Positions 4,737 through 33,909 are shown, counted from the first letter of the stretch. The stretch: 64,000 bases of DNA from Candidatus Pacebacteria bacterium CG10_big_fil_rev_8_21_14_0_10_44_54 (GCA_002772695.1 PFDI01000001.1:33253-97252), one strand, 5' to 3'. The notes: generated by a model not told the origin, from the sequence alone. Translations and numbers: made by a program.

Positions 4737-5333
4737 TCACATCATACTTTCAACCAAAACTTGCGAATACACGATACGAAATTCTTCACGAGCGCGAAAC
4801 AACTCCGACTCAATCGCCTTAACAGTCTTGCCGAACACACCGGCTATCTCTGTCACGCGCTTTTTGTCGATGTACTTAAGACGCAACAACTCTGCCGAGT
4901 GCGCCTGCATTCGAGCAAGGCAAGTAGTAACTAGCTGGGAAATCTCGGAAGTATCGTCGAGTGGCTTAGTCAAGAGTGCGTCGAGCAGTGGTACAGTATG
5001 CAGAGCTTTTTTTGCGTAGCGTTTGCGGTAGTAATCGGCTATCTCATGGCGAGCAATCGCGATCATCCATGTCCAAAGTGAAGCATCACCGCGAAACAGC
5101 GGCAGCTGCCGCAATGCATTGAGAAATGTTTCTTGAACTAGTTCCTCGCCGTCCTGCGGATCGCCCACTTTGTTTCTGACGTATCGCAACATCCTGTCGT
5201 GATACAGCGTAAACCACTGCCGCACGGCACTCGACTGACCACGCTTCAGCCTCACTATCAGCTGCTTTTCACTAGACATGAGTATATCGTATACTACTTG
5301 TATATGTTTGGCTTCCTTGTACCTGTTGCCCAT
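4737..5333 (-). CDS. ECF-type RNA polymerase sigma-70 family factor; true start is probably near 5279
   Basis: Region 2 (LVQETFLNALRQLPLFRGDASLWTWMIAIARHEIADYYR) and region 4 HTH (RVTEIAGVFGKTVKAIESELFRAREEF). Confidence 0.7.
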   Translation of the reverse strand: MGNRYKEAKHIQVVYDILMSSEKQLIVRLKRGQSSAVRQWFTLYHDRMLRYVRNKVGDPQDGEELVQETFLNALRQLPLFRGDASLWTWMIAIARHEIADYYRKRYAKKALHTVPLLDALLTKPLDDTSEISQLVTTCLARMQAHSAELLRLKYIDKKRVTEIAGVFGKTVKAIESELFRAREEFRIVYSQVLVESMM

Positions 5334-5666
5334 GCTATTACCGACTGCAAACCCGGCGAAGGTACTGAAGGTATTGATCTTGGCAATTGTCTCCGCCTTA
5401 GCAACGATAGCGCAATCAAAGACGTCTACTCCGAACCGGCTTTCTTGGTCAACCTCATCGTTCGCAATGCATTCGTCGCCGCCGGTGTTATTTTGTTTTT
5501 AATGATTTTCTTGGCAGGATTTAAGTTTGTTTCGCAGGGCAAAAAAGGCATGGAAGAAGCCAAAAACATCTCCAAGTCTGTTCTCATCGGCGCAATCTTG
5601 ATGTTTTGTGCCTACTGGATTGTACAAATTGTCCAGCTTTTGACTGGTGTTGATGTAGGGCTGTAA
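5304..5666 (+). CDS. T4SS-pilin-like protein, paralog P1 (TrbC/VirB2-like two-helix topology). The ORF-track start at 5199 overlaps the sigma gene, so ATG 5304 is more likely.
   Basis: Short signal-like N-terminus MFGFLVPVAHA. Core reads ...LFLMIFLAGFKFVSQGKKGMEEAKN...IGAILMFCAYWIVQIVQLL, with a charged loop between two hydrophobic helices. Confidence 0.5.
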   Translation: MFGFLVPVAHAITDCKPGEGTEGIDLGNCLRLSNDSAIKDVYSEPAFLVNLIVRNAFVAAGVILFLMIFLAGFKFVSQGKKGMEEAKNISKSVLIGAILMFCAYWIVQIVQLLTGVDVGL

Positions 5667-5667
5667 T

Positions 5668-6036
5668 ATGTCACAACTCGCAGCAAACAACCTTGGTATC
5701 GGCAAAATTGCTCAACCTCCTGGTGTAGACAAATACCAAGCTGCTGCTGGCAGCGAAATTGGTATCATGCTGTTTATCTCCATGCTCGTCAAGTTTGCCA
5801 TGATCGTGGCTGGTATTTGGGCAATGCTCAATATCTTTTTGGCCGCCTACATCTATATTAATGGCAAAGGTGATCCAGGCAATCACGAAAAAGTGGCCAA
5901 AGTTGTGACAAATACTACCATGGGCTTGGTGCTTCTTATTAGCCTCTATACAATCGTAGCCATTATTGGGCTTGTGTTCTTTGGGGATGCAAATTATATT
6001 TTGCGCCCAACACTAGCGCCGGTACCAGGTTTATGA
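5668..6036 (+). CDS. T4SS-pilin-like protein, paralog P2
   Basis: 122 aa with two hydrophobic helices (FISMLVKFAMIVAGIWAMLNIFLAAYIYINGKGDPGNHEKVAKVV...LVLLISLYTIVAIIGLVFFG). Tightly packed after P1. Confidence 0.5.
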   Translation: MSQLAANNLGIGKIAQPPGVDKYQAAAGSEIGIMLFISMLVKFAMIVAGIWAMLNIFLAAYIYINGKGDPGNHEKVAKVVTNTTMGLVLLISLYTIVAIIGLVFFGDANYILRPTLAPVPGL

Positions 6037-6599
6037 TCAAAATCATAACATTTCTTACTGCGTTCAGTTTATTTCACATATTTTCTGTTTCTGTAGTGCA
6101 GGCAGGTAGTTGCACAAGTGTTGGTGAGTGTGTGGATGGTCGTATCTGCGTCAAAGACACGCAATCAAACTTAATTTATAAAGGAAGTGAGTCATGTGGA
6201 GATGGCTCTGGACAAAGAATAATTGGCGAAATCACTCCCCCAAAATCAATTCGCAATTTAAATAATCTAGCAAGAATTAGAGATGGAGAATCTGTTGGCA
6301 TTGGCCTGATCATTTTCCTCTCGCGCGCACTGCGGCTGTTTACTATTGGGGTGGGATTATTTGTTATTGCCAACGTCGTCATGGCCGCCTACACCTACAT
6401 ATCAGAGTCAGATAGCAGTGACGTCATGACCAAAGTAAAAGAAAAGTTTACCTATACCGCTGTTGGGCTTGCTATAATTGTTGGCGCGTACACGCTTGCT
6501 GCGATCATTGGCTTACTCTTTTTTGGCGACGCAACATTTATCCTCTCACCAGAATTAACATCTGCGCTCGACCTCGCCGAAACTGCAGCCACACCATAA
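6033..6599 (+). CDS. T4SS-pilin-like protein, paralog P3, with a Cys-rich N-terminal extension
   Basis: Signal peptide plus a Cys-rich segment (AGSCTSVGECVDGRICV...SESCGDGSGQR), then the two-helix pilin core. Has a 4-nt overlap with P2. Confidence 0.5.
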   Translation: MIKIITFLTAFSLFHIFSVSVVQAGSCTSVGECVDGRICVKDTQSNLIYKGSESCGDGSGQRIIGEITPPKSIRNLNNLARIRDGESVGIGLIIFLSRALRLFTIGVGLFVIANVVMAAYTYISESDSSDVMTKVKEKFTYTAVGLAIIVGAYTLAAIIGLLFFGDATFILSPELTSALDLAETAATP

Positions 6600-6602
6600 A
6601 AC

Positions 6603-7007
6603 ATGTATAATAATGTCGTCATGAATACCCCACTCACCAGACTCGCGCAATTTGGCTCATTTGAACCACCAGTGGAGAATAAATTTACAACTGGTGCCAA
6701 CTCTGGCACTGGCGCCTTTACCAATCTAGAGCTGCTCATCTCTCATGCCTTTGGTGTCTTGACTGTTTTTGGTGGCTTATTTTTTATCGTCACCTTTCTG
6801 ATCGCTGGCATTAACTGGATTACCGCTGGCGGAGATACTGGCAAGATTGAGAAAGCACGCGGCAGCATGGTCCAGGGGACACTCGGTCTGGTAGTTATCG
6901 TCGCAGCCTATGCCGTGATTGGTGTTATCGGCTCTATCGTTGGCCTCAATTTGCTCAATCCTGCCGAGAGCCTGACTTCTTTGGTTACAAGAATACAAAC
7001 GCCATGA
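6603..7007 (+). CDS. T4SS-pilin-like protein, paralog P4
   Basis: Conserved loop motif INWITAGGDTGKIEKARGSMVQG lies between the two helices. Confidence 0.55.
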   Translation: MYNNVVMNTPLTRLAQFGSFEPPVENKFTTGANSGTGAFTNLELLISHAFGVLTVFGGLFFIVTFLIAGINWITAGGDTGKIEKARGSMVQGTLGLVVIVAAYAVIGVIGSIVGLNLLNPAESLTSLVTRIQTP

Positions 7008-7399
7008 AAAAAATACTAACTGCACTCGCATTTCTTGCGCTATCTACCTCAACCGTTTTGGCTGAGGTAACAAATCCAGCAGTGGGAACACTTGGTGCTG
7101 ATGCTGATGCAGCCGCAAGTGGCGCAACGTTTGCTCGCTACTTCATAATTCTCTGGCGCGCCCTCATTAGTGTTGGTGGTCTTGCGGTCGTTGTGCTCTT
7201 TTTGCAAGGTGGCATCGAGTGGGTTACCTCTGGTGGTGATTCTGGCAAGCTCGAAAAGGCACGCAATCGAATGGTACAGGGTGCGATTGGCTTGTTTGTG
7301 TTGGTAAGCTCCTTCACTCTGATAGCGTATATAAGCAAGTTGTTTTTTGGTCAAGAATTCCAAATTCTACAACTTACTTTTCCATCAGCGATTAAGTAA
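7004..7399 (+). CDS. T4SS-pilin-like protein, paralog P5
   Basis: Signal peptide. Loop motif IEWVTSGGDSGKLEKARNRMVQG. Confidence 0.55.
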   Translation: MKKILTALAFLALSTSTVLAEVTNPAVGTLGADADAAASGATFARYFIILWRALISVGGLAVVVLFLQGGIEWVTSGGDSGKLEKARNRMVQGAIGLFVLVSSFTLIAYISKLFFGQEFQILQLTFPSAIK

Positions 7400-7401
7400 C
7401 C

Positions 7402-7749
7402 ATGCCACCAACAGACGAAACCACCATCGACCTCTTCGAACAAGCAAAAACCCAAGAGCTTCCTGGCAGGAATGGTATTACTGATATCTCGAGTCCACAA
7501 GTTGGCTTGGGCAACCTCACTTCCAACCTTCTAAACATCGCCATGACTATTGCCGCCCTCCTGGTATTCATTTACTTGCTCTGGGGTGCGATTGGTTGGA
7601 TTACTGCTGGCGGCGACAAAGGCAAGATTGAAACAGCTCGCAATAAAATCACCACAGCCGTCATCGGTGTTGTAGTTTTAGCTTCGGTCGTGGCTATATT
7701 CAAAGTCTTACAGCTGGTTCTTGGTATTGAAGTCCTGACGTTTATCTAA
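7402..7749 (+). CDS. T4SS-pilin-like protein, paralog P6
   Basis: Loop motif IGWITAGGDKGKIETARNKITT flanked by hydrophobic helices. Confidence 0.55.
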   Translation: MPPTDETTIDLFEQAKTQELPGRNGITDISSPQVGLGNLTSNLLNIAMTIAALLVFIYLLWGAIGWITAGGDKGKIETARNKITTAVIGVVVLASVVAIFKVLQLVLGIEVLTFI

Positions 7750-7781
7750 TAAACTGATATTTGCATCTAGAAAATCAGAAG

Positions 7782-7790
7782 TGCTATAAT
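7782..7790 (+). promoter_or_regulatory. Extended -10 promoter element TGcTATAAT upstream of pilin P7, embedded in a small inverted repeat (TCAGAAG...CTTCTGA)
   Basis: The sequence agtgctataatc lies about 40 nt upstream of ATG 7831. An AAAGGA ribosome-binding site sits 7 nt before the start. Confidence 0.4.
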
Positions 7791-7830
7791 CTTCTGAACA
7801 AGACGTAGTACAGAGTACTAAAAGGAAAAC

Positions 7831-8304
7831 ATGACCAACTCATTTTCAAAAATTGCAAGTAAAGCAAGCGCTCTAGGCACTGCTGGGTATATTGCCTTAT
7901 CAAACACTCTTGGAAATGTTCTAGCCCAGAACACTGGCATAGGTACTAGCGCCTCTCGTCCAGCACCAGGGGTAGATAATGCTGGTGGCAACGTTCGTCT
8001 TGCCAAGGGTTATGCGGATAATGTTGGTAGTCTTATCACTTCTGTTCTGACGTTTGTTATGTTGATCGCTGCTCTTTTGATCCTTATGTATCTCATTTGG
8101 GGTGGTATCCAGTGGATTACTTCTGGTGGAGATAAAGGAAAGACTGAAGAAGCACGAAATAAGATTACTTCAGCCGTCATTGGTCTGATCATCCTAGCGG
8201 CAGCTTGGGCAGTCTTTTTAATTGTGCTCAAGTTCCTAGGATTTTCAAATTACAATGATCTGTTTAATAATATTCAAAGCATCAATACACCTTCTGCAGG
8301 CTAA
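7831..8304 (+). CDS. T4SS-pilin-like protein, paralog P7
   Basis: Loop motif IQWITSGGDKGKTEEARNKITS. C-terminal tail ...FLGFSNYNDLF is shared with P8. Confidence 0.55.
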   Translation: MTNSFSKIASKASALGTAGYIALSNTLGNVLAQNTGIGTSASRPAPGVDNAGGNVRLAKGYADNVGSLITSVLTFVMLIAALLILMYLIWGGIQWITSGGDKGKTEEARNKITSAVIGLIILAAAWAVFLIVLKFLGFSNYNDLFNNIQSINTPSAG

Positions 8305-8333
8305 TAATGCAGCTTTAGCTTTTTAACATTATG

Positions 8334-8358
8334 ACCCCCGCCGCTGGCGGGGGTTTTT
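8334..8358 (+). terminator. Rho-independent terminator after pilin P7
   Basis: GC stem cccccgcc / gcggggg with loop gctg, followed by TTTTT. Confidence 0.7.
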
Positions 8359-8375
8359 GTACATCATATTCCCAG

Positions 8376-8387
8376 ATGTAGTATAAT
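8376..8387 (+). promoter_or_regulatory. -10 element (TATAAT) upstream of pilin P8
   Basis: gtagtataat with TATAAT at 8382-8387, just upstream of ATG 8395. Confidence 0.35.
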
Positions 8388-8394
8388 ACCCAAC

Positions 8395-8871
8395 ATGATC
8401 AAATGGTATCAAAGTGTCTTTCTATGTCTGGTGGTTTTTGCCTACTTTTTGGCGCCAGCAGCAATCTCTGCTAGCGGTAGCTCGCTCGGTGTTGTTCGTG
8501 ACGGCGACTCTGTCTACCTCTCTACCACCGCTGCAACGCAATCAGCTACTGCAAGTGGTACAGCATTTGGAGACGTCACACTTTTTAAGGGCTACGCTCT
8601 TACACTTGGCGGCCTCATCACCTCGTTGCTCACTTTAATTATTCTTGTATCGGCTCTTCTTGTTTTTCTCCAACTCATCACCGCCGCCTTCCAATGGCTC
8701 ACCTCGGGCGGAGATAAGGGTAAAACAGGCGAAGCCAGAAGTAAAATTGTCGCTGCGATCATTGGCCTTGTTATTGTCGCTGCTTCTTGGGCTGTCTTTA
8801 TGGTGGTACTCAAATTCCTTGGTTTTGAGTCGTACGACGACTTGTTTGCCAATATGCGATCGATTAGTTGA
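8395..8871 (+). CDS. T4SS-pilin-like protein, paralog P8
   Basis: Loop motif FQWLTSGGDKGKTGEARSKIVA. Closest paralog of P7. Confidence 0.55.
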   Translation: MIKWYQSVFLCLVVFAYFLAPAAISASGSSLGVVRDGDSVYLSTTAATQSATASGTAFGDVTLFKGYALTLGGLITSLLTLIILVSALLVFLQLITAAFQWLTSGGDKGKTGEARSKIVAAIIGLVIVAASWAVFMVVLKFLGFESYDDLFANMRSIS

Positions 8872-8945
8872 TGTAAACCTTACTTTTTTTACTATAAAGC
8901 AAGAATACAAACACTCTAAAGCTAGTTTTATTGATCATTTCTGCC

Positions 8946-8954
8946 TGCTATACT
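8946..8954 (+). promoter_or_regulatory. Extended -10 promoter element TGcTATACT upstream of pilin P9
   Basis: ctgctatact ends 8 nt upstream of ATG 8963. Confidence 0.35.
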
Positions 8955-8962
8955 ACTAAGTG

Positions 8963-9409
8963 ATGCGCACACAGGCACTTTTTTTCAAAATGTACAAAAA
9001 TTTTACCACAGCTTTCGCCCTGTTCTTGATCAGTGTGCAGCCAGTCTTTGCCCAAACAGCTGCTTGGGGCGGCAAATGTGTGGATGGTGAACAAGATGAC
9101 GTCGCCACCATCCAAGGTCTTGAGTGTTTGTTTGCCAATGTATTTTTAGTCATTATTCCTCTCATTGGCCTGGCTGCGTTTGTCATGTTTCTGGTCGGAG
9201 CATTTCGCTGGCTCACCTCGGGCGGAGACACCAAACACACTGGTCAAGCCAAACAAACAATGACGTTTGCGGTGATCGGCATCGTAGTAGCACTCAGCGC
9301 TTTTATAATTTTAAACCTCATTGCCAATTTTACCGGTGTCGAGAAAATCAAAGAATTTAGGATTCCTCGCTCAAATGAGCCGCCCGAACAAACGCAATTT
9401 GTCGATTGA
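8963..9409 (+). CDS. T4SS-pilin-like protein, paralog P9, with a Cys-containing N-terminal segment
   Basis: Signal peptide, then AAWGGKCVDGEQDDVATIQGLEC, then loop motif FRWLTSGGDTKHTGQAKQTMT between helices. Confidence 0.5.
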   Translation: MRTQALFFKMYKNFTTAFALFLISVQPVFAQTAAWGGKCVDGEQDDVATIQGLECLFANVFLVIIPLIGLAAFVMFLVGAFRWLTSGGDTKHTGQAKQTMTFAVIGIVVALSAFIILNLIANFTGVEKIKEFRIPRSNEPPEQTQFVD

Positions 9410-9481: not shown

Positions 9482-12400
9482 GTGAGAATTTTTGCGAAAT
9501 TTATTGTGCCCCTTTGTCTGACGCTTGTTTTGGGCGCAGCACCTGCTTCTGTACAAGCTGTAGCTTGTGGGATAAATATTGACCCTACAAATCCTGCTGG
9601 ATATCCCAGCCCAAATGCTCTACCTGCTGGCAGTTGGGTACGACTTGAATACAAAGATTGTAGCACTCAAGAACCCGCAACTAACTCTGTTGAAATGTAC
9701 AAAGACGTGCTACAGACATATCGAAATGCCGGAATAAAAACCCTCGTCATTCTTGATTATCTCACCTATCCGGGAGCGGACAAAAATACACAAGCACTAG
9801 CAACACGAACAACATATATTAACGAAGAACTCGGTAGTCTAGTCGATGCCTACGAAATTTGGAATAAACCCGATATAGAACAGGGTGGCAATCTTGCGCC
9901 CAAAAATTTTGCAAAAATACTCGACGCAATCGTGCCAACCCTGAGTGGAAAAACGGTTGTTCTCGGTGGACTTGCATCGGGACAAACCAGCTACCTCGAT
10001 GAAACGCTGCGCGCTGTATCTGAGAACACACTGGGTGGAATTTCCGCCATAGGAATTCATCCTTATGCAAAGTCTGTCGATGGTTTTCCTGGACCAATGA
10101 CGGGAGATATGGGGTTTTTGCTGTCTCAATACAAGGCTTTATCTCAGGGAAAACCACTCTGGATAACCGAGATCGGTATCAACACCAAAAATGCTGAGCA
10201 AATAACCGGTTATCTAGATCGAGTGTTTGCTGCTGGTTATGGAGACCCTACTTTCTGGTTTGCGTGGAGTGATGGTATGGTACAGAATTTTGGCATTGTT
10301 GATGCAGATCAAAATCCAAAAGCTAACTTTTCAAACTACTTTCGGGCATGTGGCGCAGTCGCTCCCTCAGGAAAACAACAAACACTGCCAGCTATTACCC
10401 CAGTTGGAGGGCAAGGCTGTGGGGTAGCAATTTCAAAAAATAACTACAAAGATACCAAGTCAGATGATCCAAACCTATTTCACTTATCACCTTTTGATGG
10501 CTTGTATCCCGATCCAGGCACGCGCGACTATGATCAGTTGCGTCTCGATCTTGTTCAACAGGGCTACCAAGCATACTGTGCCATCCCAGATCAAGAAATT
10601 GTTGGTACCCTGAGTCCGGCAGAGATCGTCAAGTACTTTGTATCAAATGGGGGAGAAAAGGAACTTGAAATAAATCCCATTCTTACACTTGATTACTCGA
10701 AGGCACAAACACCTCTATTTCGCGACAGCGAAAGAAAATACCAAATAAAAAGTGACATAGAAGAATACTGGGTATATCAAGAATCAGAGGGAGATAGTTT
10801 CTCTCAGATCGAATTGCAGTCTGCTCCTATCGAATCAATTCTTTCAGAAGATCAGCGCTGTAGCCAAGGGGTAAAAAACTTGTACTCTCAAGATGATATG
10901 TGCTCAAAACTAACTGAGCCTAAAAGGTGTTCTCTCTATGCATCGCTTATCCCCAATACATCCCACACTGTTGAGAGTATTCTTGAAGAATATAAGTCTC
11001 ATGGGGGATCAAAAGAGAATGGACTTGAAGTATGCAAAAAACTGAGACTCGCAAATGAAAACACTCAGCGAAAACTTTTTTCTGACCTTACTCAAGTTCC
11101 TCTGAGCATTGATACGGGGTTTCGATTTGCTTTTTTGGTGCTCGCATTTCAAGAGCTGAAACCTGCCCCACTAGAGTTATTTCGCTTTTTTGGGCACGGT
11201 GCTCCACCCAGAGACGAAGTGCTGGTGATAGCGTTCAAAATTCCTGATATTATCACCAATAAACCTGAAGGAACTTCCTTCTCGGACTCAAACTCCTTTG
11301 CATATCCGGCCTTCTCTGATGGTGCGCTGCTCGCTAGAGATTCGCTGCTGAGCACCAAACAGCAAGCTGTGGCTCAAGAACAAAAAAAAGAACTCAAACA
11401 AGAGTTAACGACAACTATCGGGAGCGTTGCTGGTCAAAACAATGGTAGTCTCATTTACTGTCTTGATGGAACGCCGCCAAATGGCACTGGCAGTATCGCT
11501 TGCAATGATCAGCTGGTCAAAGCGCTTACAGATATCATCAACGCCCAACACGTCATCGACGATTCACAGCTTGTGTGTGTGGGTAAAGACGAAATTGATG
11601 CTTCATTTGTAATTGATGAACCAGCTGCTGCTCGTATACAGTCTCCTCCCGCTCTGTTTTCTGACCGTCTGGGGGCGCAAATCATTTCGCAGCTATTTTT
11701 AAGCCAAGCGAACACAGCTACCGACGCTCTTGCCAAAGAATTTTTTAGTTCTTTTTTGATAAATATTTCGACTACTGAGGGAGGAAACAAGCTGTCTGGC
11801 AACACAAAACTAAGAAGCTACATAGTCTACCCCGTTGGCTATGAACTTAAAGAAGTAGAAAATGTGCTTGCCAACAGTTTTTTGACCAAACAGCAAATCA
11901 CAGCATTGCAAAAAGATACAAACAACAACGAGCGTTTTGAAATGTACGGCGGCACTACAAAACTTACAGAAACTGAAGCTGGCTTTAGTGTTTTTTATCC
12001 CATAAACTGCATTCCCTCGATTGACTCTTGTTATAGAACTATCACGGGTGCTATCGACATGGGCGTTCTCAAGCCAATCCAGTTTCTTGGCGCCAAACTT
12101 GGCTACTATCTGCGCGCGGTACAGCGCACGCTTGCCAAAGAAGCTAGTTCTGTCCAAGCCTATCTCGCAAACTGCAAAACAACAGAGCAATTCCTGCTTG
12201 ATCGCTGTGCTAGCGTCCAACAAAAACCACCAAAGCAAGCACTGACATACTGCAGCATGAATGAGCTACCGATCACAAACGAGACTACCGAATCTTTCAA
12301 AATCTGTAAGGCAACCGAAAATTGGAGAGAATGCGAGCTTGTTGACGCAGGTAGCCCTACCTATTTTGTTGATGGTGGTTCAGACAACACACTCGAGTAT

Positions 12401-13807: not shown

Positions 13808-14671
13808 CTAGCCGCGTGCAATCGACATGCTCTTGGCTAATGATGCAGTCGAGTTGGTAAGGAGTTTCTTCTTGGTTGACGTTTCTTTTGTGGCCTCAGG
13901 CTGCGACTCTAGTTGTGACACAGTAGATTTTTGTTCAAAACCAACCCTGCGCGCGCCCTGACGCAATAATTGCCCCACTGTTTCAAACGTTTCGGCGCTA
14001 ACACTACGCGACGCCAAACCTCGTGTTGCCATCTCAATCCCATAAAGTAGTTGGGTGGCAGAATCTGCTGACAGTGAAAACCCAAGATCTGCAATAAGCC
14101 GGGCCACTTCCTGACTGACGCTCGCGGCGCTCCCGGTGTTTATACTCAGCGTAGCAAACGCTGGTTCATGCGTGGTGATCGAGATGATTGGCACCTTGGC
14201 ATAGACATCTTCGTAGCTCATGTAGAGTTGCTCGAGTTCAACTAGCTCTTTGACACCTACGGTAAAAATCAGGTCTGCCTCTGCCCCCGTATAGGAAAAC
14301 TCGACTGATTCGGGATCAAGTGGTCTCTCACCTTTTTGTGGTTTGATAGTGAGATAAAAACGACCTGTTTCTTCGCCAATATGATAATTGACATTGTCCA
14401 CCTGCTCCGGCTGATACGCAAAACTCAGCACCAAGTTTTGGTTACCAAGCTCGGTCAAAATAGTTGTATCAACAGACTCAGGATAGCGTGATTTTTCTGG
14501 TTGGCGCGGACTCAATAATCGCACTTCCTTTCCGGCGGCAGCCAGACTTGCTGCCAAAGCCTCGGCAGCGGCTCGCTTGTCTGGTGTGGCAGTGCTCGGG
14601 AAAATAACAAAAATGGAGTTGGCTTGTGCGACCAAATCGGTTAACTGAGTCAGCGTTGCAGCATCAATCAT
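13808..14671 (-). CDS. Hypothetical protein with a DHH-phosphoesterase-like layout but degenerate catalytic motifs
   Basis: N-terminus ANSIFVIFPSTATPDKRAAAEALAASLAAAGKEV parallels the NrnA-type I(V)IxxHxxPDGDAxGSxLAL segment, but the DHH / GGGH motifs are absent. Locally high GC content. Confidence 0.3.
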   Translation of the reverse strand: MIDAATLTQLTDLVAQANSIFVIFPSTATPDKRAAAEALAASLAAAGKEVRLLSPRQPEKSRYPESVDTTILTELGNQNLVLSFAYQPEQVDNVNYHIGEETGRFYLTIKPQKGERPLDPESVEFSYTGAEADLIFTVGVKELVELEQLYMSYEDVYAKVPIISITTHEPAFATLSINTGSAASVSQEVARLIADLGFSLSADSATQLLYGIEMATRGLASRSVSAETFETVGQLLRQGARRVGFEQKSTVSQLESQPEATKETSTKKKLLTNSTASLAKSMSIARG

Positions 14672-23116: not shown

Positions 23117-23119
23117 ATA

Positions 23120-27600: not shown

Positions 27601-29021
27601 GGGCAATGATTCCTGGCCTTGGAGGTCAATGGACTGGCCTAATGGGCTGGACTCCCCATGCTCCCACTTCACCATTCTCTACTTCTGGCAGCACCGCCGG
27701 AAGCTTGTCGTCATCGGGTACTAGTTCGCTTCGAGCGCTCAGATCAGAGGGCGCTGCAAACTCAAGCACTGCCGCGCATTCCGTCTCGAGTACTGGAGGA
27801 GAGTCGTTTTCTGCCGCCAACCAAACTGCAACAGCGGCGACACCGGCTTCGGGTAGCACTTTTGTCCAAGGCGACCCAACGGCCGCCACAACCGCAGCAG
27901 GCTCCTCGTCTCTTACTGGATTACTTGGTGCTACTACCGCCACAGTTGTTGCCACCGCTGCCCCTCTTCTCGGTATTGGAGTTGGCTTATTTTTATCAAT
28001 TCAAGTTTTGTTTATAATTTACGGCGCATTTTTGGTTGATGTGCCATCGGAGGGTCTGGGTGGTCCAACTGCAGAACTTTCAAAGTATGCCACACTCACC
28101 AAAAAAGCTAATCCCAATACGCTTCCCATTAATATTCCAAGCGAGGTAACATATACAGTTGAATTTGCCCCGAAAAGCAAATACCGTCTGCAGATCACTC
28201 GGGTTGAAGATGTTTTCTCATATCAGGGCTGTGATAAGACTCAAGCTAATAGTTGCGACCTTAGCCTTGAATCACCTCTCGAACTTGGATCGTTTCCCAC
28301 CGAATCTATAACTAGCCCTGCAGAGGTAGGCTATTCGGTCACAATAAATGGTAGTGATGTTATGGTCATCAATTCACTCACTATCACCTTTGATGTGTAT
28401 GATTCTGCGGGCACCAAGCTTGCCACCAATGAAAGTATTACGGCGCTAGAGTCAGTTGTTGTCGGCAATCCACAGGTGGGTTGCTTTGTGCCTGGAGAGT
28501 CGGGGGAGGCGTTTATAACTAATTTCGGAACAATCTATTCTATGTCGTGGAACGACAAAAACTCTGCTAGTGACTTTAACAAAATTTTATCTGCTTATAG
28601 CAATACTGTTGGAGCCAACGAACAATTTACCAACTTGCTTTGCGCCAAAGGGCCTATCACTCTTTATAGACTTGATAAAAACCCCAATAACTACTATGGC
28701 TGGGCCATGGGATATAGCAAAATTGGTTTTTACGCAGATACGTTTAACAATGTAGTTGGTACCGAATACACACTTGTTCACGAACTAGGACACATCATTG
28801 ATTATCGCAACGCAGGGCTGCGCGCTTCTTTTACCACACTACTTCCCAGAAATCTCTATGCCTGTTTTGATTATCCTGGAAGCACTTGTTCGGATGGTGA
28901 GGCATTTCCCGAAGCTATTGCTCGCTATGCTACAAATTATAAAAACTACAACTTAAAACAAAAACACCCCAAAGTACACACTTGGCTTAAAAATAACATC
29001 TTTGGGGGTATAGAATATTAA
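24675..29021 (+). CDS. Giant (1448 aa) membrane protein. It has a long coiled-coil N-terminal region, glycine-zipper transmembrane segments, a Ser/Thr/Ala-rich linker, and a C-terminal domain with a HExxH zincin motif.
   Basis: Transmembrane/Gly-zipper segments GLAATGVGLPAAAILTLL...GGALGAIAGGLIGGPIGALIGANVGAMIPGLGG and APLLGIGVGLFLSIQVLFIIYGAFLV. C-terminal YTLVHELGHIIDYRN, with downstream acidic residues (GEAFPEAIARY). Confidence 0.5.
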   Translation: MADSDRDQTTTTTGSDLKDQARQAFGSIFSSANIIPLDKVKRLGVYRPEERPQLAAVFDRLTKFINAQYRLIDNQKIIIRLLDQGAVELTTEDQRQYSEVPEAERRTRLFMADLIQLASDIGKTLWSWEQSEQLREFGEVDEWYWLKELGEEAGTNQISNFFAKEKIAKLQRELFADIWHAFKVGEPEPTDEPAAAVPDASGATVPGEKLEAITAAYAASGKGGDSDAQTDTSETVTAKERTPAEELGIRERQIEQQTLLIKLQQELFENIVGDLTTKEIDQMWSDLEPGLIAEITDFFATHPELREKLAVASAGDSLVRSEIYQQFLLALHTNANLINRLTQMYTAASDRAVVVGPNRAVELEKSLKQAVDILGENQVSRIISHIEQTATIAQIPKTKPAPITTEASPLDQQVLLEPESKLQKSAFEYLTSHAEYEIFRKTRIFLHQLSPELDLSAQNIHTAIAEFARQETLSLTTTQLRLAQADPAYLRSLYERFASNLQRQYPEITNFLIDYGWFISQTSPAEAAQFEHIYRNGILGKTLSAKDALKTELQNTLKGAATAVVIENTITTIDAMILEFGDKAPEFVESISIDRLELAFGLASGTLTSETAPLFLTTLRGQMQLRLTELRMAGNPEFLAAGGFQGGVLPTTPKQTETVLAAVPLSRQLLTTTQSDTETTIAALGAPTKPVEKNHAAWWSSLPKDAQLQVYAKLMGSAAAGEYAAFSAVPFPDKLSALSNTEIRKMLVGIWSESPQLTPDQTAQFQTIDRELETLDRLVIAQVKTAELHKQVVAAIMQDIKDEQAAIIAAQLGLQVAEKASAQATIIAAVNSGQAPIPAQNLVTMNEALVQGGSNALVGADPYASNFAQQFAGRAGSLASSLRSAAMEKLKKKLAGNLLKGAATKAGLAATGVGLPAAAILTLLQNKTARKIVLGGGALLVAKTLYSLTTYGGALGAIAGGLIGGPIGALIGANVGAMIPGLGGQWTGLMGWTPHAPTSPFSTSGSTAGSLSSSGTSSLRALRSEGAANSSTAAHSVSSTGGESFSAANQTATAATPASGSTFVQGDPTAATTAAGSSSLTGLLGATTATVVATAAPLLGIGVGLFLSIQVLFIIYGAFLVDVPSEGLGGPTAELSKYATLTKKANPNTLPINIPSEVTYTVEFAPKSKYRLQITRVEDVFSYQGCDKTQANSCDLSLESPLELGSFPTESITSPAEVGYSVTINGSDVMVINSLTITFDVYDSAGTKLATNESITALESVVVGNPQVGCFVPGESGEAFITNFGTIYSMSWNDKNSASDFNKILSAYSNTVGANEQFTNLLCAKGPITLYRLDKNPNNYYGWAMGYSKIGFYADTFNNVVGTEYTLVHELGHIIDYRNAGLRASFTTLLPRNLYACFDYPGSTCSDGEAFPEAIARYATNYKNYNLKQKHPKVHTWLKNNIFGGIEY

Positions 29022-29022
29022 T

Positions 29023-29592
29023 ATGCATAATTTGCAGACAACTCACTGGATTTTTGCTCGCTGGTATTACACGCTAGCTGCAGCTGCTTTTATCCTATTG
29101 GCGAGCGCTGCAATACTACAGCTTCTCACACCAAAACCAGAAAAAACTGCCACTAGTTTTTCTGCACTCATGCCAGGAAACACCTTTTCGAGTAAAAAAC
29201 AACAAGAGCTTGGAGAGCCTATTGAAAGCGCAATAACCGAACAAGGCGACACAAAATATCTCTATCAATCGAGTTTCGCTGCACTGCCAAACGAGTTGTA
29301 TATTAGTAAAGAAAATAAGGTAGTGTTTATAAAGGAGTTTGTTTTACCAGATCACGAACACACCGTCTCACAATATGCGGCAGAATACGGTGAGCCCGAC
29401 CTGGTTATGTATGACTCTAGCTCGCCCGACTCGGTACGAGCGCATGTATTTTTGGAAGCTGGCTTGGTAGTGGTAGCCCATGTAGACGGCGACATTGTCG
29501 AACAAAAATGGCTTTTTGAACCAACCACGAAAGAGAAGTTTTTGGCAGGATATGGCGATACACTCTCAGAAATTGGCTCTGGACCAGAATAA
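29023..29592 (+). CDS. Small bitopic protein: one N-terminal transmembrane helix plus an extracytoplasmic domain of about 150 aa. Possibly a VirB8/PrgL-like T4SS component.
   Basis: Transmembrane helix WIFARWYYTLAAAAFILLASAAILQLL. Size and topology match VirB8-like proteins. Located between the giant protein and the PrgI-like gene. Confidence 0.3.
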   Translation: MHNLQTTHWIFARWYYTLAAAAFILLASAAILQLLTPKPEKTATSFSALMPGNTFSSKKQQELGEPIESAITEQGDTKYLYQSSFAALPNELYISKENKVVFIKEFVLPDHEHTVSQYAAEYGEPDLVMYDSSSPDSVRAHVFLEAGLVVVAHVDGDIVEQKWLFEPTTKEKFLAGYGDTLSEIGSGPE

Positions 29593-29621: not shown

Positions 29622-30833
29622 TTGCTTCATTACCTCTACAATGAAATAACCCGTATGCGAGAACATCCGATCCCACAAGACATAACCGGTTACCGCTTTC
29701 ACATCGTTGGCAGCATGACGCTCAAGCAGTTTGGGGAGCTCGCACTTGGCGCCATAATTGCTTTTATTATTTATAGCACCAATCTTTTTCCTGTCATCAA
29801 GTGGCCGCTCATGTTTGTCGCCTTTGGCTTGGGGGCGTTGGCAGCGTTTGTCCCGATCGCAGAGCGTCCAATCGACCACTGGATCATCACGTTTTTTAAA
29901 GTGTTGTACAAGCCAACACAGTACTATTGGAAACGAAAAGAAAAAATTCCCGATGTATTTTTGTTCAAACCAGGCAAAATTACCGAGGCTCCAGAAGATG
30001 AGGTCGACCTCACCCCGCTGCGTCGACAGCGAATTAGAGAATACCTCTCCTCCACACAATACGAGACTCCTAGCGACGACCTATTGGTAGAAGAACGTGC
30101 TCAAATCCAAGAAATTACAAAGTTATTTGGCGCCACCCATGTACGTCCAAAAGATATGTCAAGCACACAGCCAAAAATAACCCAACGACCCAACCTCACA
30201 ACTCGGGTAAGAGAAATGAGACAAGATGCTTCATTTGACCAAGTCTTTACTATATTTTCACAAGGAGATGCTCGGTCCGCACCAGTAGAGAAGGCTCGGG
30301 GCGTGCAAGACTTGGTTCAAGAAACGACTAATAGCAACAAAAAGTCTATGTACCTTACTACAGAACAGGTGGCGCAAAACATAGAAGTGCCCGAAACCGA
30401 CTCTATTGCTGTAGAAAAAAACCAAGCAAACAAATCTCTAGAGAGAGCAACTGCTTCGTCTGCACCAGAAGAGCAGTTTTTTATTGCCGATCAAAGCGAA
30501 GCAGATTCTGGACCTGCCGCAGCGGGAGCGGCCACTTACAACACGAGTCTGCCATTTCCAGACAAACCAAGCGTGCCAAATAAGTTGGTTGGCATGGTTC
30601 TCTCTGCACAAAACGAGCTGATTCCCGACGCAATTGTAGAAATTCGCACAGCAAGCGGCTCGATTGAGCGCGCGGTCAAAAGCAATGCTTTGGGTCAATT
30701 TTTTATTACCACTCCTCTGGCAAACGGCGAGTATGTGATTGAGGCAGAAAAAGATCGGCTGCAATTCCCAGCCCAAAGTTTTGTTTTGACTGGCAAGCCA
30801 GTTGATCCAATCGAAATCAGAAGCAGCGCATAA
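29622..30833 (+). CDS. PrgI/VirB3-like T4SS membrane protein with a C-terminal carboxypeptidase-regulatory-like beta-sandwich extension
   Basis: Two closely spaced transmembrane helices near the N-terminus (LALGAIIAFIIYSTNLF, WPLMFVAFGLGALAAFVPI), directly upstream of VirB4. The C-terminus (LVGMVLSAQNELIPDAIVEIRTASGSIERAVKSNALGQFFITTPLANGEYVIEAEKDRL) resembles a CarboxypepD_reg-type fold. Confidence 0.45.
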   Translation: MLHYLYNEITRMREHPIPQDITGYRFHIVGSMTLKQFGELALGAIIAFIIYSTNLFPVIKWPLMFVAFGLGALAAFVPIAERPIDHWIITFFKVLYKPTQYYWKRKEKIPDVFLFKPGKITEAPEDEVDLTPLRRQRIREYLSSTQYETPSDDLLVEERAQIQEITKLFGATHVRPKDMSSTQPKITQRPNLTTRVREMRQDASFDQVFTIFSQGDARSAPVEKARGVQDLVQETTNSNKKSMYLTTEQVAQNIEVPETDSIAVEKNQANKSLERATASSAPEEQFFIADQSEADSGPAAAGAATYNTSLPFPDKPSVPNKLVGMVLSAQNELIPDAIVEIRTASGSIERAVKSNALGQFFITTPLANGEYVIEAEKDRLQFPAQSFVLTGKPVDPIEIRSSA

Positions 30834-30884
30834 CTTGCCGCCTGCCTTGAAACACGCTACGATACTACACAGAGACAAACTTGC

Positions 30885-31916
30885 ATGCCCGATACAATTA
30901 CCACCACCCAATCGTTTTTGGATATTTACGACATCACCAACGACCTACTGTTGATGAAAGACGGCACTACTTCACTAGTGATGATCGTCGACGCGATGAA
31001 CTTTGGCCTGCTTGCAGAATCAGAACAGGACGCCATTATGTATGCCTACGCGGGCCTGCTCAACTCAATCAATTATCCCATTCAAATTGTTATCAACTCG
31101 CGCACCAAAGATGTAACAACCTATCTACATTTACTCGAGCAGCAAGAGTCTGAAACTGCTTCGCCCATTATGCAGGGTCGCATTCGTGCATATCGAGAGT
31201 TTGTTGGCAATCTCATCCACGATCGCAATGTGCTCGACAAAAAGTTTTATGTCGTCATCCCCGCCACTCCGCTAGAGCTCGGTATGATCGCGCCCTCAAG
31301 CGTTCTGCCTGGTAAACAATCGCCGGGGATCGAAAGTATGGAGAGATCTGTTATCATTGAAAAAGCGGTAAACCTGCTTGAGCCAAAACGAGATCATCTT
31401 GCAGCACAGTTTGCGCGAATCGGCCTTTTTTCTCGCCAACTGACTACGCAAGAAATTATCCAATTGTTTTATATCAAGTACAACCCAGAGGCTGCCGAAG
31501 GGCAGCACATCGCTGAAAGTAGTAGTTATAGCGCGCCGCTAGTACACGCGCGCATTCAAGGAGAACATATGGATGCTCCAACACCAACCAACCCAACACC
31601 CACGGCCGTGCCGGAACCAACTGCGACGCCAGTGACTCCGCAGCCAGCTGCTGCAGAACCCACTCCACCAACACCTGTGGCTCAACCTACTTCGCCCACT
31701 CCGCCAGAGCCAGCTGCTGCTACAGCACCTGCTGTATCGCCTGCCCCAACTGCCACAGACGAGAGCGCAATACAAGCAGATCTCAACGCAAGTGTTCAAT
31801 CTATGGGACAGGCGCCAATCACACCAATTCCGCCAGGAGGACCAGCGGCAACAACACCAACTACTCCTGATACTGCGGTTCAACCAGCAACACCCGCGCA
31901 ACTGCCAGAGATTTAG
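30885..31916 (+). CDS. VirB4/TrbE N-terminal domain ORF, ending in a Pro/Thr/Ala-rich low-complexity tail (first part of a split VirB4)
   Basis: FLDIYDITNDLLLMKDGTTSLVMIVDAMNFGLLAESEQDAIMYAYAGLLNSINYPIQIVINS matches the VirB4/PrgJ N-terminal region. The tail is PTPTNPTPTAVPEPTATPVTPQPAAAEPTPPTP... Confidence 0.55.
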   Translation: MPDTITTTQSFLDIYDITNDLLLMKDGTTSLVMIVDAMNFGLLAESEQDAIMYAYAGLLNSINYPIQIVINSRTKDVTTYLHLLEQQESETASPIMQGRIRAYREFVGNLIHDRNVLDKKFYVVIPATPLELGMIAPSSVLPGKQSPGIESMERSVIIEKAVNLLEPKRDHLAAQFARIGLFSRQLTTQEIIQLFYIKYNPEAAEGQHIAESSSYSAPLVHARIQGEHMDAPTPTNPTPTAVPEPTATPVTPQPAAAEPTPPTPVAQPTSPTPPEPAAATAPAVSPAPTATDESAIQADLNASVQSMGQAPITPIPPGGPAATTPTTPDTAVQPATPAQLPEI

Positions 31917-31938
31917 GATTTGGCCAATAAACAATACT

Positions 31939-31967
31939 CAACCCACAACTTTCATTGTTGTGGGTTG
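31939..31967 (+). other. Perfect 11-bp stem / 7-nt loop hairpin in the 70-bp gap between the two VirB4 ORFs
   Basis: caacccacaac-tttcatt-gttgtgggttg. No following T-tract, so it is not a canonical intrinsic terminator. Confidence 0.6.
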
Positions 31968-31986
31968 TTGCGTACAATAGCTTGTA

Positions 31987-33909
31987 ATGCCCAGTCTAAG
32001 CTCGCTCCTACCATTTGCAAAAAAACCAAAAGAAGCAGATCGCTCTTTGCAAGATAACGCGGCGGCTCGCTCGCTCGAAAAAATTCAAGAATTTTCTCGA
32101 GGTCTAGTGACGATTCAAGATATTATTGCACCCGAGGCTATTGAAGTAGATTTTACCTACCAAAAAATTAATTCTACATACACCCGCACCCTATTTGTGG
32201 CCGGTTATCCCCGCAGTGTTCCAGCAAACTGGCTTGGTCCGCTCATCAATTTTCCCCATCAAATGCACGTCTCTATGTTTATTTTTCCAGTTGATTCTGG
32301 AGAAGTGCTCGACAACCTTAAACGCAAAATTACCGAGATGGAAGCAGAAATTCAATCTGACTTACGAGCGGGCAAAATCAGTAACATCAATACCGAGGTA
32401 AAGCTCGAGGACGCTCGCTTTATTCGCGAAGAGCTCGCCAAAGGTTCGGAGCGGTTTTTTCAATTTGGCTTATATGTCACTGTCACCGCCCAATCACTCG
32501 AAGAGCTGAACCGAGTCACCAAGAGTATTCAATCCTCACTTGGTTCATTGCTTATCGTCTCAAAAAATGCCACTCTCCAAATGGATGAGGGATTCAAAAC
32601 CACACTACCAATGGGTGTTGATAAGCTGCTTGTAACTCGCAATATGGATACCACCTCGCTTGCGACAACCTTTCCTTTTACCTCGTCTGAACTCACGATG
32701 GAGAGCGGCATAATGTATGGGATCAATGAACACAACGACTCGCTTGTCATTTTTGATCGATTTGAAATGGAAAATGCCAATATGATTATTTTTGCCAAAT
32801 CTGGTGCTGGCAAGTCCTACACAGTCAAACTCGAAATTTTGCGTCAACTTATGTTTGGAATTGATGTCATCGTGCTCGACCCAGAGCATGAGTATGAAGA
32901 ATTATCCAAAGCAGTTGGTGGTGAGTACCTCAATTTCACCTTTAGTTCAAAAGCGCGCATCAACCCCTTTGATCTCTCCAATATTTATGAAGAGGGAGAA
33001 AATGAGCTAGGACAAAAAATTATCTCACTCCACGGTTTGCTCAAAGTCATGCTCGGCGAGATGACGCCACAACAAGACGCGCTACTCGATCGAGCGCTTG
33101 TGGCAGCTTACAAAGCCAAAGGAATTACTCCTGATCCTGCCACTCAAACACTCGAGCCACCCCTCATGGAGGATGTATATAAGGCACTCATTGGCATGGA
33201 AAATGAGGATGCCAATAACATTGCTGCACGCCTCGAAAAGTTTATCACCGGCTCATTCCGCGGCATTTTTGATCAACCTTCCAATTTTAATATTACTAAT
33301 CAACTCACTGTTTTTTCGGTCAAAGAAATGGAGGAGGGTCTGCGACCAATTGCTATGTACATAATACTCGACTATATCTGGACAAAAGTAAAGAAAAATC
33401 TCAAAAAGCGAATTTTGGTTATTGATGAAGCCTGGTACTTCATGACAAGCAAAGACTCGGCCTCATTTATTTACTCAATGGTAAAACGAGCCCGCAAGTA
33501 CTACCTTGGTATAACCACTATTACGCAAGATGTTGAAGACTTCGTTTCTAACGACTACGGCAAGGCTATTATCTCTAATGCCTCTATTCAGTTTTTGATG
33601 AAACAATCAACCGCCTCTATTCCTGTTCTGGCCGAAACTTTCTACCTTTCTCAGGGAGAAAGACAACTCCTCATCACCGCCGACATTGGTGAAGGTATCT
33701 TTTTTGCTGGACAAAATCACGTTGCGCTTCGTGTGGTGGCCTCGCCAGAAGAGCACGGGATTATTACTACCAATCCGGAAGAGATTCTTAGAAAAAACAA
33801 ACAACGCACGCTTGTTGCTTCCCAAGAAGCAACCAATCAAAATAAATCGCCAGTTACACAAGAAAGTCTGTCGAGTAGTATTGATGACTATTCCCCGCCC
33901 CCAAACTAA
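31987..33909 (+). CDS. VirB4/TrbE/CagE-family T4SS ATPase (central and C-terminal ATPase domains)
   Basis: Walker A IFAKSGAGKSYTV. Walker B LVIDEAWYF. Upstream CagE/TrbE-type region (YTRTLFVAGYPRSVPANWLGPL). Confidence 0.8.
   Translation: MPSLSSLLPFAKKPKEADRSLQDNAAARSLEKIQEFSRGLVTIQDIIAPEAIEVDFTYQKINSTYTRTLFVAGYPRSVPANWLGPLINFPHQMHVSMFIFPVDSGEVLDNLKRKITEMEAEIQSDLRAGKISNINTEVKLEDARFIREELAKGSERFFQFGLYVTVTAQSLEELNRVTKSIQSSLGSLLIVSKNATLQMDEGFKTTLPMGVDKLLVTRNMDTTSLATTFPFTSSELTMESGIMYGINEHNDSLVIFDRFEMENANMIIFAKSGAGKSYTVKLEILRQLMFGIDVIVLDPEHEYEELSKAVGGEYLNFTFSSKARINPFDLSNIYEEGENELGQKIISLHGLLKVMLGEMTPQQDALLDRALVAAYKAKGITPDPATQTLEPPLMEDVYKALIGMENEDANNIAARLEKFITGSFRGIFDQPSNFNITNQLTVFSVKEMEEGLRPIAMYIILDYIWTKVKKNLKKRILVIDEAWYFMTSKDSASFIYSMVKRARKYYLGITTITQDVEDFVSNDYGKAIISNASIQFLMKQSTASIPVLAETFYLSQGERQLLITADIGEGIFFAGQNHVALRVVASPEEHGIITTNPEEILRKNKQRTLVASQEATNQNKSPVTQESLSSSIDDYSPPPN

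Follow-up and report, generated by a model that had tools for sequence, protein, structure and literature searches.

A probably vertically inherited type IV secretion locus beside dnaA in a Candidatus Pacebacteria genome

What kind of machine is encoded by a cluster of type IV secretion system (T4SS) genes that runs up to dnaA and has neither a coupling protein nor a relaxase beside it? The cluster considered here lies in a 64,000-nucleotide (nt) stretch of Candidatus Pacebacteria bacterium CG10_big_fil_rev_8_21_14_0_10_44_54 (GCA_002772695.1 PFDI01000001.1:33253-97252), hereafter the window, in which the locus spans positions 5199-33909 (~29 kb) and ends at dnaA (Table 1). We consider it highly probable that this interval is a vertically inherited, chromosomally fixed T4SS of Microgenomatia (Ca. 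Pacebacteria/Woesebacteria-like), belonging to a Patescibacteria VirB4 clade that derives from the monoderm conjugation machines of the MPF-FATA class. A preliminary description of the same DNA had already proposed a chromosomal, monoderm-type T4SS that is distinct from an integrative and conjugative element (ICE) and acts in protein secretion or host interaction, and much of what follows concerns how far the individual components bear this out.

The VirB4, TrsD-like and PrgI-like core of the locus

Pfam scans covered essentially all window open reading frames (ORFs) of ~110 amino acids (aa) or more. The only universal T4SS marker, a VirB4-family ATPase, is encoded directly upstream of dnaA and places the locus among the T4SSs. 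This protein matches the NCBIfam conju_CD1110 equivalog at 376 bits (cut-off 325) over profile positions 178-733 of 752, the first ~177 positions being absent; its Walker A motif is at residue 270, and it also matches Pfam P-loop_TraG (E 3e-24) and AAA_10.

The preceding 343-aa ORF matches NCBIfam VirB4_plasma at positions 112-235 (E 2e-5) and carries a precomputed assignment to the TraC-like family PF26593. Among its orthologs, 25/27 match NCBIfam TrsD (NF041427) and 26/27 the VirB4 N-terminal region, and a TrsD profile found no match in the PDB. To gauge conservation, we located window proteins by tblastn in the best 80 VirB4 loci of a species-representative genome set, and a TrsD-like gene stands directly upstream of virB4 in 74 of them. 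What had been described as a split VirB4 is thus a conserved stand-alone TrsD-like gene followed by a short VirB4. Reading the 343-aa ORF as a VirB4 pseudogene fragment was likewise rejected: it is read in another frame, it ends in a Pro-rich tail of its own, and it stands as a separate gene in those 74 species as well as in Bacillota.

Directly upstream of the TrsD-like gene, 70 of the 80 loci carry a PrgI-like gene. The window protein passes the Pfam PrgI cut-off by a narrow margin (27.2 bits vs 27.0; profile positions 1-85 of 91) and has a transmembrane (TM) hairpin at residues 41-73, in keeping with its earlier description as PrgI/VirB3-like. Its C-terminus resembles a CarboxypepD_reg beta-sandwich (E 3e-5, below cut-off), and the same pair of domains occurs in a distant relative.

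Gene order is conserved in distant Microgenomatia

The exact VirB4 sequence is present on 11 metagenome contigs with identical gene order. Among the best 120 of 8,000 VirB4 homologs, identity ranges from 76 to 92%, and those that are named come almost entirely from Ca. Woesebacteria, Pacebacteria or Microgenomates metagenome-assembled genomes (MAGs), with two rows labelled Pseudomonadales. The best 80 VirB4 loci are all from candidate phyla radiation (CPR) MAGs and are ~73-93% identical to the window protein, the closest being CG_2015-01t_44_17 (93%). Outside the CPR, the nearest VirB4s, with 30-35% identity, are encoded on plasmids of Bacillota and Actinomycetota. Compared by identity rather than in a tree with reference classes, the window VirB4 fits the Patescibacteria clade, given its high identity to CPR sequences and only 35% to the nearest plasmid VirB4. 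By its VirB4 relatives the organism belongs to Microgenomatia, and not to the Saccharibacteria lineage that had been put forward for comparison.

In the same 80 loci, dnaA (76/80) and dnaN (68/80) keep their order and orientation relative to virB4, as do the TrsD-like and PrgI-like genes. Long-range synteny was read from the contexts of three distant homologs of the 585-aa membrane protein encoded in the middle of the locus. On the left, their shared order comprises an extracytoplasmic function (ECF) sigma factor gene on the minus strand (in two of the three), a pilin array, a giant gene, a minus-strand ~300-aa gene, the 585-aa family and a minus-strand giant; on the right it comprises ribK and eamA, which are optional, a giant, a bitopic gene, a gene combining PrgI and CarboxypepD_reg, a TraC/TrsD-like gene and virB4. 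The right-hand tail to virB4 is seen in one of these relatives, and the other two loci end at the giant or the next gene. Because this gene order is shared with three distant relatives, we read the interval as a single vertically inherited 29-kb core locus, with the pilin array inside the conserved block, 22.6 kb upstream of virB4.

The interval might instead be two unrelated halves, in which the pilins and the SLT giant (5.2-13.8 kb) form a separate filament and only 24.7-33.9 kb encodes a T4SS. The two modules do stand ~11 kb apart, with other genes between them of which several are on the opposite strand, and in a published survey (Quinonero-Coronel 2025; PMC12102498, drawn on here in part) a pilin gene was near virB4 in only 1,135 of 1,948 pilin-carrying assemblies. 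Both modules and the intervening genes nevertheless occur in equal order in the three distant relatives, in one of which they are contiguous without ribK/eamA, and the VirB6-like gene is located between the modules. Moreover, we know of no VirB2-type pilins that assemble without a VirB4-type machine, and we regard a division of the locus as very unlikely.

The window lacks the marks of an integrative element

A conjugative element should carry a transfer and integration apparatus, and an ICE, or the decayed remnant of one, would have its relaxase, coupling protein and integrase beyond the window. The ancestry of the core components is compatible with such an element, since the VirB4, TrsD and PrgI families originate in monoderm conjugative elements; homologs of type IV coupling proteins (T4CPs) are encoded elsewhere in related genomes (PMC12102498, in part), and small mobile insertions lie inside the locus. 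Within the window, however, Pfam scans of the ORFs found no relaxase, integrase or recombinase domain, there is no tRNA gene that could serve as a target and no Rfam match, and direct repeats spanning the locus are chance-level matches of 17-20 nt, with no att-like flanking repeats and no oriT-like repeat set. The GC content resembles that of the flanks, except in the region of the 1074-aa gene. Conservation of the dnaA-dnaN neighborhood in 76/80 species, with VirB4s 73-93% identical, is the pattern of a vertical core locus, and of 109 relaxases in the published survey (in 103 of 3,035 Patescibacteria genomes) only 15 are near virB4 (PMC12102498, in part). The fixed position at dnaA in 76/80 species and the lack of integrase and att-like repeats in the window thus argue that the locus is not an ICE, an origin to which we assign a minimal probability.

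A VirD4/TraG-type coupling protein was not found in Pfam scans of the 64-kb window, nor in the 8 kb to its left. The preliminary statement that coupling protein, relaxase and integrase are missing therefore stands for the window, and for the coupling protein it extends to those 8 kb only. The conclusion drawn from it, a chromosomal, monoderm-type, non-ICE T4SS, is upheld by the CD1110-type VirB4, the fixed dnaA position and the missing integrase and att repeats.

The locus abuts the origin region

The preliminary description placed the end of the locus 23 bp before dnaA. Close abutment is confirmed, and the distance depends on the start codon: from the virB4 stop at 33909, the gap is 22 nt to the earliest potential dnaA start, a TTG at 33932, and 67 nt to the ATG at 33977, the start used by gene callers on six contigs. 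The virB4-dnaA spacer (33910-33976) contains two DnaA-box-like sites with one mismatch each, at 33933 and 33945, and the dnaA-dnaN spacer (35459-35711) contains a perfect DnaA box, TTATCCACA, at 35601. Cumulative GC skew declines as far as ~36 kb, levels off between there and 41 kb, and turns upward after a minimum at 42.5 kb. Across the window, enrichment of DnaA boxes is weak (23 sites vs 15 expected, with 4/100 shuffles reaching 23), so the boxes are informative only as local clusters around dnaA. The DnaA boxes and the GC skew thus indicate that the locus abuts the origin region. Transcription of its plus-strand T4SS genes would run toward the origin and meet the leftward fork head-on.

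Table 1. Features of the T4SS locus and its surroundings; coordinates are window positions.
Feature	Coordinates	Strand	Basis
Tenth pilin domain, C-terminus of a 498-aa protein	1..594	+	T4SS_pilin E 1.3e-5; local HMM E 4e-10
ECF-type sigma factor, divergent from the pilin array	4737..5333	-	Sigma70_r2/r4_2/ECF
Nine tandem VirB2-like pilin paralogs	5199..9409	+	Pfam PF18895, local HMM, alignment, TM scan
Individual pilin ORFs	5199/5304-5666, 5668-6036, 6033-6599, 6603-7007, 7004-7399, 7402-7749, 7831-8304, 8395-8871, 8960-9409	+	
Secreted 1435-aa cell-wall hydrolase, VirB1-like role	9482..13789	+	Pfam, motifs, positional homologs
Conserved 287-aa cytoplasmic protein, member of the syntenic block	13808..14671	-	Homologs in L087, L088
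Lineage-specific insertion: GNAT acetyltransferase and full AAA_14/DUF4143 ATPase	14699..16759	- (GNAT), + (ATPase)	Pfam
VirB6-like polytopic membrane protein, 585 aa, candidate translocon/stalk-base subunit	16816..18573	+	TM scan, fold
Conserved 1074-aa cytoplasmic giant	18834..22058	-	TM scan, Walker A scan, positional homologs
Passengers ribK (22139-22534) and eamA (23660-24502)	22139..24502	+	Pfam
~1-kb insertion splitting ribK/eamA: DUF4143 fragment and HTH_3 gene	22529-23527	-	Pfam
1448-aa membrane giant	24675..29021	+	TM scan, sequence, positional homologs
189-aa bitopic protein, 1-nt gap behind the 1448-aa giant	29023..29592	+	TM scan, model
PrgI/VirB3-like membrane protein (gene callers start at 29655)	29622..30833	+	Pfam PrgI
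TrsD-like 343-aa protein, VirB4 N-domain homolog (~230 aa) with Pro/Ala/Thr-rich tail	30885..31916	+	
VirB4 ATPase, CD1110/MPF-FATA type, 640 aa	31987..33909	+	NCBIfam, Pfam, Walker A
Replication-origin neighborhood (dnaA 33977-35458, dnaN 35712-36815)	33910..36815	+	Pfam, DnaA-box scan, sequence, GC skew

The VirB2-like pilin array

T4SS_pilin (PF18895) matches all nine tandem ORFs at the left end of the locus; the gathering score is reached by five of them and missed by the other four (E 4e-5 to 6e-3). A local hidden Markov model (HMM), built from the five passing pilins and searched against 361 six-frame ORFs, recovers exactly the four weaker pilins and the ORF at 1-591, and no other (E 6e-30 to 3e-7). 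The paralogs are strongly divergent, with a mean pairwise identity of 22% and a maximum of 49%, and by alignment and TM scan each combines a two-helix hydrophobic hairpin with a W(I/L)TxGGDxGK loop. The ten VirB2-like pilins first attributed to the locus are thus found as ten domains in the window, of which nine, by PF18895 and the local HMM, fall within 5199-33909. The tenth belongs to a gene that begins ~902 nt left of the window and is complete on contig L089.

Two observations concern the left flank. On L089 (12147-14854, together with window 1-594), two long pilin-domain proteins of 402 and 498 aa, each with T4SS_pilin at the C-terminus, are followed by a SpoIID gene. Between these long pilin-domain genes and the main array stand the housekeeping genes uppS and pyrH and an AbiEi/AbiEii pair.

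The ECF sigma factor gene that diverges from the array has a counterpart at the equivalent position in two distant Microgenomatia contexts. We regard the sigma factor as a candidate regulator of the locus.

A secreted hydrolase giant and a VirB6 candidate

Behind the pilins, the locus encodes a 1435-aa protein with a signal peptide, a Glyco_hydro_cc domain at residues 127-250 (25 bits) and a C-terminal SLT domain at 1264-1313 (23.9 bits). Both domain scores are just over the Pfam cut-offs, and the SLT domain keeps the catalytic ES...GxWQ motif. Positional homologs with 26-30% identity lie behind the pilin arrays of the relatives L087 and L088. The signal peptide, the two domains and the catalytic motif sustain the earlier designation of this giant as a VirB1-like hydrolase.

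The 287-aa protein encoded next has homologs at the equivalent position in L087 and L088 (45-50% identical) and no match in Pfam and NCBIfam scans, including none to Pfam DHH. Its residues 179-245 weakly match the RecJ-like PDB entry 8ioo (E 1e-3); if this match is true, a nuclease or phosphoesterase beside a T4SS would be interesting.

The 585-aa protein has ~8-9 TM helices by TM scan. Its predicted fold matches VirB6 (TrwI, DotA), with a model predicted local distance difference test (pLDDT) score of 65 and a Foldseek E of 0.05. Pfam and NCBIfam scans give no match, and an hhalign comparison of the family with a 779-aa membrane protein of Pontibacillus is not significant (probability 16%). 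The VirB6 assignment in the preliminary description, which had named profile searches as its test, accordingly fails under sequence profiles and regains support from fold comparison and synteny. We propose the 585-aa family as a structure-supported VirB6 candidate for Microgenomatia. An identical protein is labelled 'phage tail tape measure protein' at NCBI (P0121); since the fold points to VirB6, this label is probably an annotation error that has spread through MAG records.

The 1074-aa giant

In the minus-strand 1074-aa protein, the N-terminal ~400 aa look like coiled coil and the C-terminal ~600 aa form a conserved domain. We found in it no TM helix, signal peptide, Walker A/P-loop, Pfam or NCBIfam match. 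Its family has 35 representatives among 1.84 billion proteins; the family profile matches coiled coils only, and Pfam scans of 27 members return scattered noise. Opposite-strand giants of ~980-1770 aa occupy the same position in three relatives, with homology confirmed for L087, and the protein is tied to the secretion system by conserved synteny only. Two further features of the gene stand out. The family evolves fast, with ~26-30% identity between relatives whose VirB4s are ~80% identical, and G+C at 18001-22000 is 0.39 vs 0.44-0.50 around it. When the PDB was searched by sequence with the 287-aa protein and each of the three giants, the matches were marginal only.

A variable peptidase domain and its partner gene

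In the third giant, of 1448 aa, ~900 aa that look cytoplasmic are followed by a Gly-rich TM region (residues 906-1125) and an external beta-rich region; a signal peptide is lacking. Neither Pfam nor NCBIfam matches it; both it and the 1074-aa giant are present at the lengths that the preliminary description gave. Peptidase_M23 is found at the C-terminus of 23 of 29 positional homologs, whereas the window protein and eight relatives have instead a C-terminal domain with an invariant HExxH...E...E signature (HELGH...GEAFxEA), which matches only weakly to ATLF/M57/M91, anthrax-lethal-factor-like and other zincin families.

The gene directly behind this giant encodes, in the window, a 189-aa protein with one N-terminal TM helix and an external tandem domain, (helix + 4 strands) x2. 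It has no Pfam or NCBIfam match. Five homologs were usable for modelling, of which four gave poor models, and the predicted fold is BLIP/DUF4309-like, resembling the inhibitor/immunity proteins BLIP, TsiN and BtiO, and not VirB8-like. Of the earlier label, a VirB8-sized bitopic protein, the size and the single N-terminal TM helix are correct and the VirB8 identity is not borne out; because Pfam and NCBIfam return nothing for the 585-aa and 189-aa proteins, the VirB6 and VirB8 assignments both fail at the sequence level.

Comparison of 55 Microgenomatia loci reveals that a giant body of ~1,200-1,300 aa is conserved and that the C-terminal catalytic domain varies: M23 in most, HExxH zincin-like in 9, a third, unassigned type in 5 and CHAP in 1. 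In 55/55 loci the product of the gene directly behind the giant begins with a TM helix, and the family of this protein tracks the C-terminal type perfectly, with the 189-aa family accompanying HExxH (9/9), a ~330-aa family M23 and a ~135-aa family the third type (5/5). The HExxH-type C-terminus has the 189-aa protein as its cognate partner. A fourth combination is seen at L080:2285-7074, where the giant has a weak C-terminal CHAP match (E 2e-4, below cut-off) and the bitopic gene behind it, of 210 aa, is unique.

The HExxH loci are scattered among the relatives. In distances computed from concatenated VirB4, DnaA, DnaN and TrsD (1,742 columns), the HExxH locus L013 is nearest to the M23 locus L021 (d 0.139 vs 0.476 to the closest HExxH locus; 200/200 bootstraps), and the same mixed pairing recurs in L064/L059, L067/L073 and L032/L024. 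The giants of L013 and L021 can be aligned over residues 1-1306 and diverge beyond. Because the HExxH loci are polyphyletic and these two giants diverge after residue 1306, the enzyme domain and its partner appear to have been swapped together on several occasions.

The 1448-aa giant and the bitopic gene may thus form a polymorphic enzyme-partner cassette, resembling an effector/immunity pair, inside the T4SS operon. Such an arrangement recalls the X-Tfe/X-Tfi pairs of the bactericidal Xanthomonadales X-T4SS, in which a peptidoglycan-targeting enzyme forms a bicistron with a small cognate envelope protein; in the Microgenomatia loci the two also appear to be co-exchanged between close relatives. 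The X-T4SS differs in being a diderm MPF-T system with a VirD4-dependent C-terminal XVIPCD signal, whereas the putative enzyme described here is the C-terminus of a membrane-anchored giant encoded within the structural operon. One could speculate, with some doubt, that the giant is a T4SS-associated peptidase that attacks host walls and diversifies with host wall chemistry, and that its partner is a cognate inhibitor protecting the producer's own wall.

Passenger genes and other features of the window

About 3 kb of 5199-33909 is lineage-specific insertion, and the DUF4143 family has been inserted twice in the block. The GNAT and DUF4143 genes are missing between the 287-aa and 585-aa homologs of three relatives, and this pair is outside the secretion machine proper. 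The ~1-kb insertion between ribK and eamA is flanked by a 34-nt direct repeat (31/34 identical; 22487-22520 and 23480-23513) that copies the ribK 3' end, and looks like a small mobile cassette with target duplication. In the closest relative, L007, ribK adjoins eamA, and both genes are missing from the block in one relative.

Elsewhere in the window, three tandem type IV pilus/type II secretion system (T2SS)-G-like pilin genes with N_methyl motifs (59812-61549) belong to a separate filament system. Toxin-antitoxin pairs outside the T4SS block, AbiEi/AbiEii and MazE-like/PIN, are at 664-1927 and 45530-46275.

Relation to known secretion systems

A homologous T4SS has been studied in Southlakia epibionticum ML1 (S. 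epibionticum; SEML1_0006-0019), where it is essential for epibiotic growth and includes essential pilin genes, and where it resembles Gram-positive conjugative systems and has no recognizable coupling protein and relaxase (Wang 2023; PMC10633639). A 2025 review repeats the essentiality of the Saccharibacteria T4SS and its pilin array (PMC12857230). This prototype is from Saccharimonadia, whereas the locus described here is from Microgenomatia.

Parts of the survey of 3,035 genomes (PMC12102498) describe a Patescibacteria-specific VirB4 clade nested in MPF-FATA, with TrsD beside VirB4 and with PrgI/VirB3; VirB2 arrays of 2-11 genes with ~25% identity, especially in Microgenomatia and Saccharimonadia; and a position of virB4 near dnaA, dnaN and rnpA in Paceibacteria and Microgenomatia, read there as a gene-dosage effect, with relaxases rare; the 2025 review (PMC12857230) gives the same picture. 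The window locus shares with these systems virB4, TrsD and PrgI/VirB3, a pilin array (here nine genes at 22% identity), a chromosomal location adjacent to dnaA/dnaN without a relaxase near virB4, and peptidoglycan hydrolases in the cluster. It differs in that Microgenomatia are portrayed in those parts as scarce in VirB6 and seldom linking VirB3 to virB4, whereas here PrgI is adjacent in 70/80 loci and a VirB6-like fold is predicted. The three giants, the 287-aa gene and the swappable module do not appear in the abstract and sections 12-14 of that work, and we found no description of the co-exchange of enzyme domain and partner in the literature (for PMC12102498, in the same parts).

Compared with monoderm MPF-FATA systems such as CTn2 (CD1110 VirB4), pGO1 (TrsD, TrsC, TrsG) and pCF10 (PrgI, PrgH, PrgK, PrgL), the locus has the CD1110-type VirB4, the TrsD and PrgI partners and large multi-domain SLT/M23/CHAP cell-wall hydrolases of the PrgK and TraG kind, and no outer-membrane core (VirB7/9/10) was detected at it. 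Unlike them, it has no relaxase, T4CP, oriT or recognized NTF2/VirB8-like protein (of the PrgL, TraM or TcpC type) in the window, and it occupies a fixed chromosomal origin site rather than a plasmid or ICE. Gram-positive systems also generally lack VirB2-like pilins (PMC12102498, in part), which the window locus has. Arrays of tandem, strongly divergent pilin genes in a single T4SS locus are known from Bartonella and Anaplasma (PMC12102498, in part); those are diderm MPF-T animal pathogens, and the driver proposed for them, antigenic variation against an immune system, is inapplicable to a bacterial host.

The closest non-CPR VirB4 that we found (35%) is from Pontibacillus sp. ALD_SL1 (NZ_CP062975). 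The gene order there is a pilin-like gene (Mbov_0395 family), the 779-aa membrane protein, a small ORF, a TrsD-like gene (hhalign 99.6%), a CD1110-type virB4 and a 1050-aa M23 'DD-metalloendopeptidase' giant. It differs from the window locus in having one annotated pilin-like gene vs nine and a giant behind virB4, which shares homology with the CPR giants in its M23 domain only. The cluster (L091; 351-361 kb) is on an 898-kb plasmid typed as non-mobilizable, has no relaxase or T4CP annotated within 15 kb and adjoins a flagellar cluster. Given this example, Patescibacteria may not be the only monoderms that have VirB2-like pilins and T4SS clusters lacking a relaxase.

Function of the machine

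If the components act as their families suggest, VirB4 and the TrsD-like protein, docked on PrgI and the VirB6-like protein, would energize assembly of a channel, and a VirB2-type pilus or stalk would be built from the variable pilins. The two hydrolase giants could open peptidoglycan, whether the cell's own or that of the host, and let the structure cross the wall. The machine would then serve host-cell contact or exploitation, by protein export or by exchange of molecules, rather than conjugation, and in this respect the host-interaction role proposed in the preliminary description is supported as probable.

The direction of transport could also be inward. A Ced/Ted-like import machine, or a pilus acting as a conduit, would bring DNA, nucleotides or host molecules to a cell with minimal biosynthesis, and the lack of a relaxase in the window is in line with it. 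The VirB4 has weak matches to two archaeal ATPases of DNA import, CedB (E 5e-16) and CedD; these reach, however, only 58 and 32 bits vs cut-offs of 700 and 600, conju_CD1110 passes its own, and no CedA-like component was found. A FEMS review speculates that the T4SS or pilus is a conduit for uptake from the host, and reports that in S. epibionticum the essential role of the T4SS does not depend on ComEC-mediated DNA uptake (PMC12857230), which tells against DNA import. In the published VirB4 tree, the CPR clade falls inside MPF-FATA, a class that holds the archaeal systems too (PMC12102498, in part). On balance we judge import to be unlikely.

Several points weigh against the interpretation of the locus as a host-interaction T4SS. 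The VirB6 call comes from a medium-confidence model with no sequence-profile support. No VirB8-like component or NTF2-like bitopic protein was recognized at the locus, and three conserved parts of the block have no assigned role, namely the 287-aa protein, the 1074-aa protein and, in the 1448-aa giant, the N-terminal ~900 aa. The function ascribed to a Microgenomatia T4SS is transferred by analogy from one Saccharibacteria species. Finally, a VirD4-like coupling protein is probably encoded elsewhere in the genome: Table S3 of PMC12102498 places t4cp1 ~66-80 genes from virB4 in each Woesebacteria/Shapirobacteria genome inspected, and parts of the same work report VirD4-like matches in 2,918/3,035 Patescibacteria genomes, mostly far from virB4. 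The absence of a coupling protein from the window is thus, by itself, no ground on which to dismiss DNA transfer.

This kind of locus in ultra-small CPR bacteria, with its pilin arrays, lack of relaxase and proximity to dnaA, is already described from 2023-2025 (PMC10633639; PMC12102498, in part), and the additions made here are modest: a VirB6 candidate family, the full 29-kb gene order and a swappable peptidase/partner module. The extended gene order names the 287-aa protein, the 1074-aa protein and the ECF sigma factor as candidate components, and host specificity could be read from the peptidase/partner module. Patescibacteria, which live on other cells, account for much of bacterial diversity; their T4SS is the first for which an essential role in its carrier has been shown and the first monoderm one with VirB2-type pilins, which makes its function an important question.

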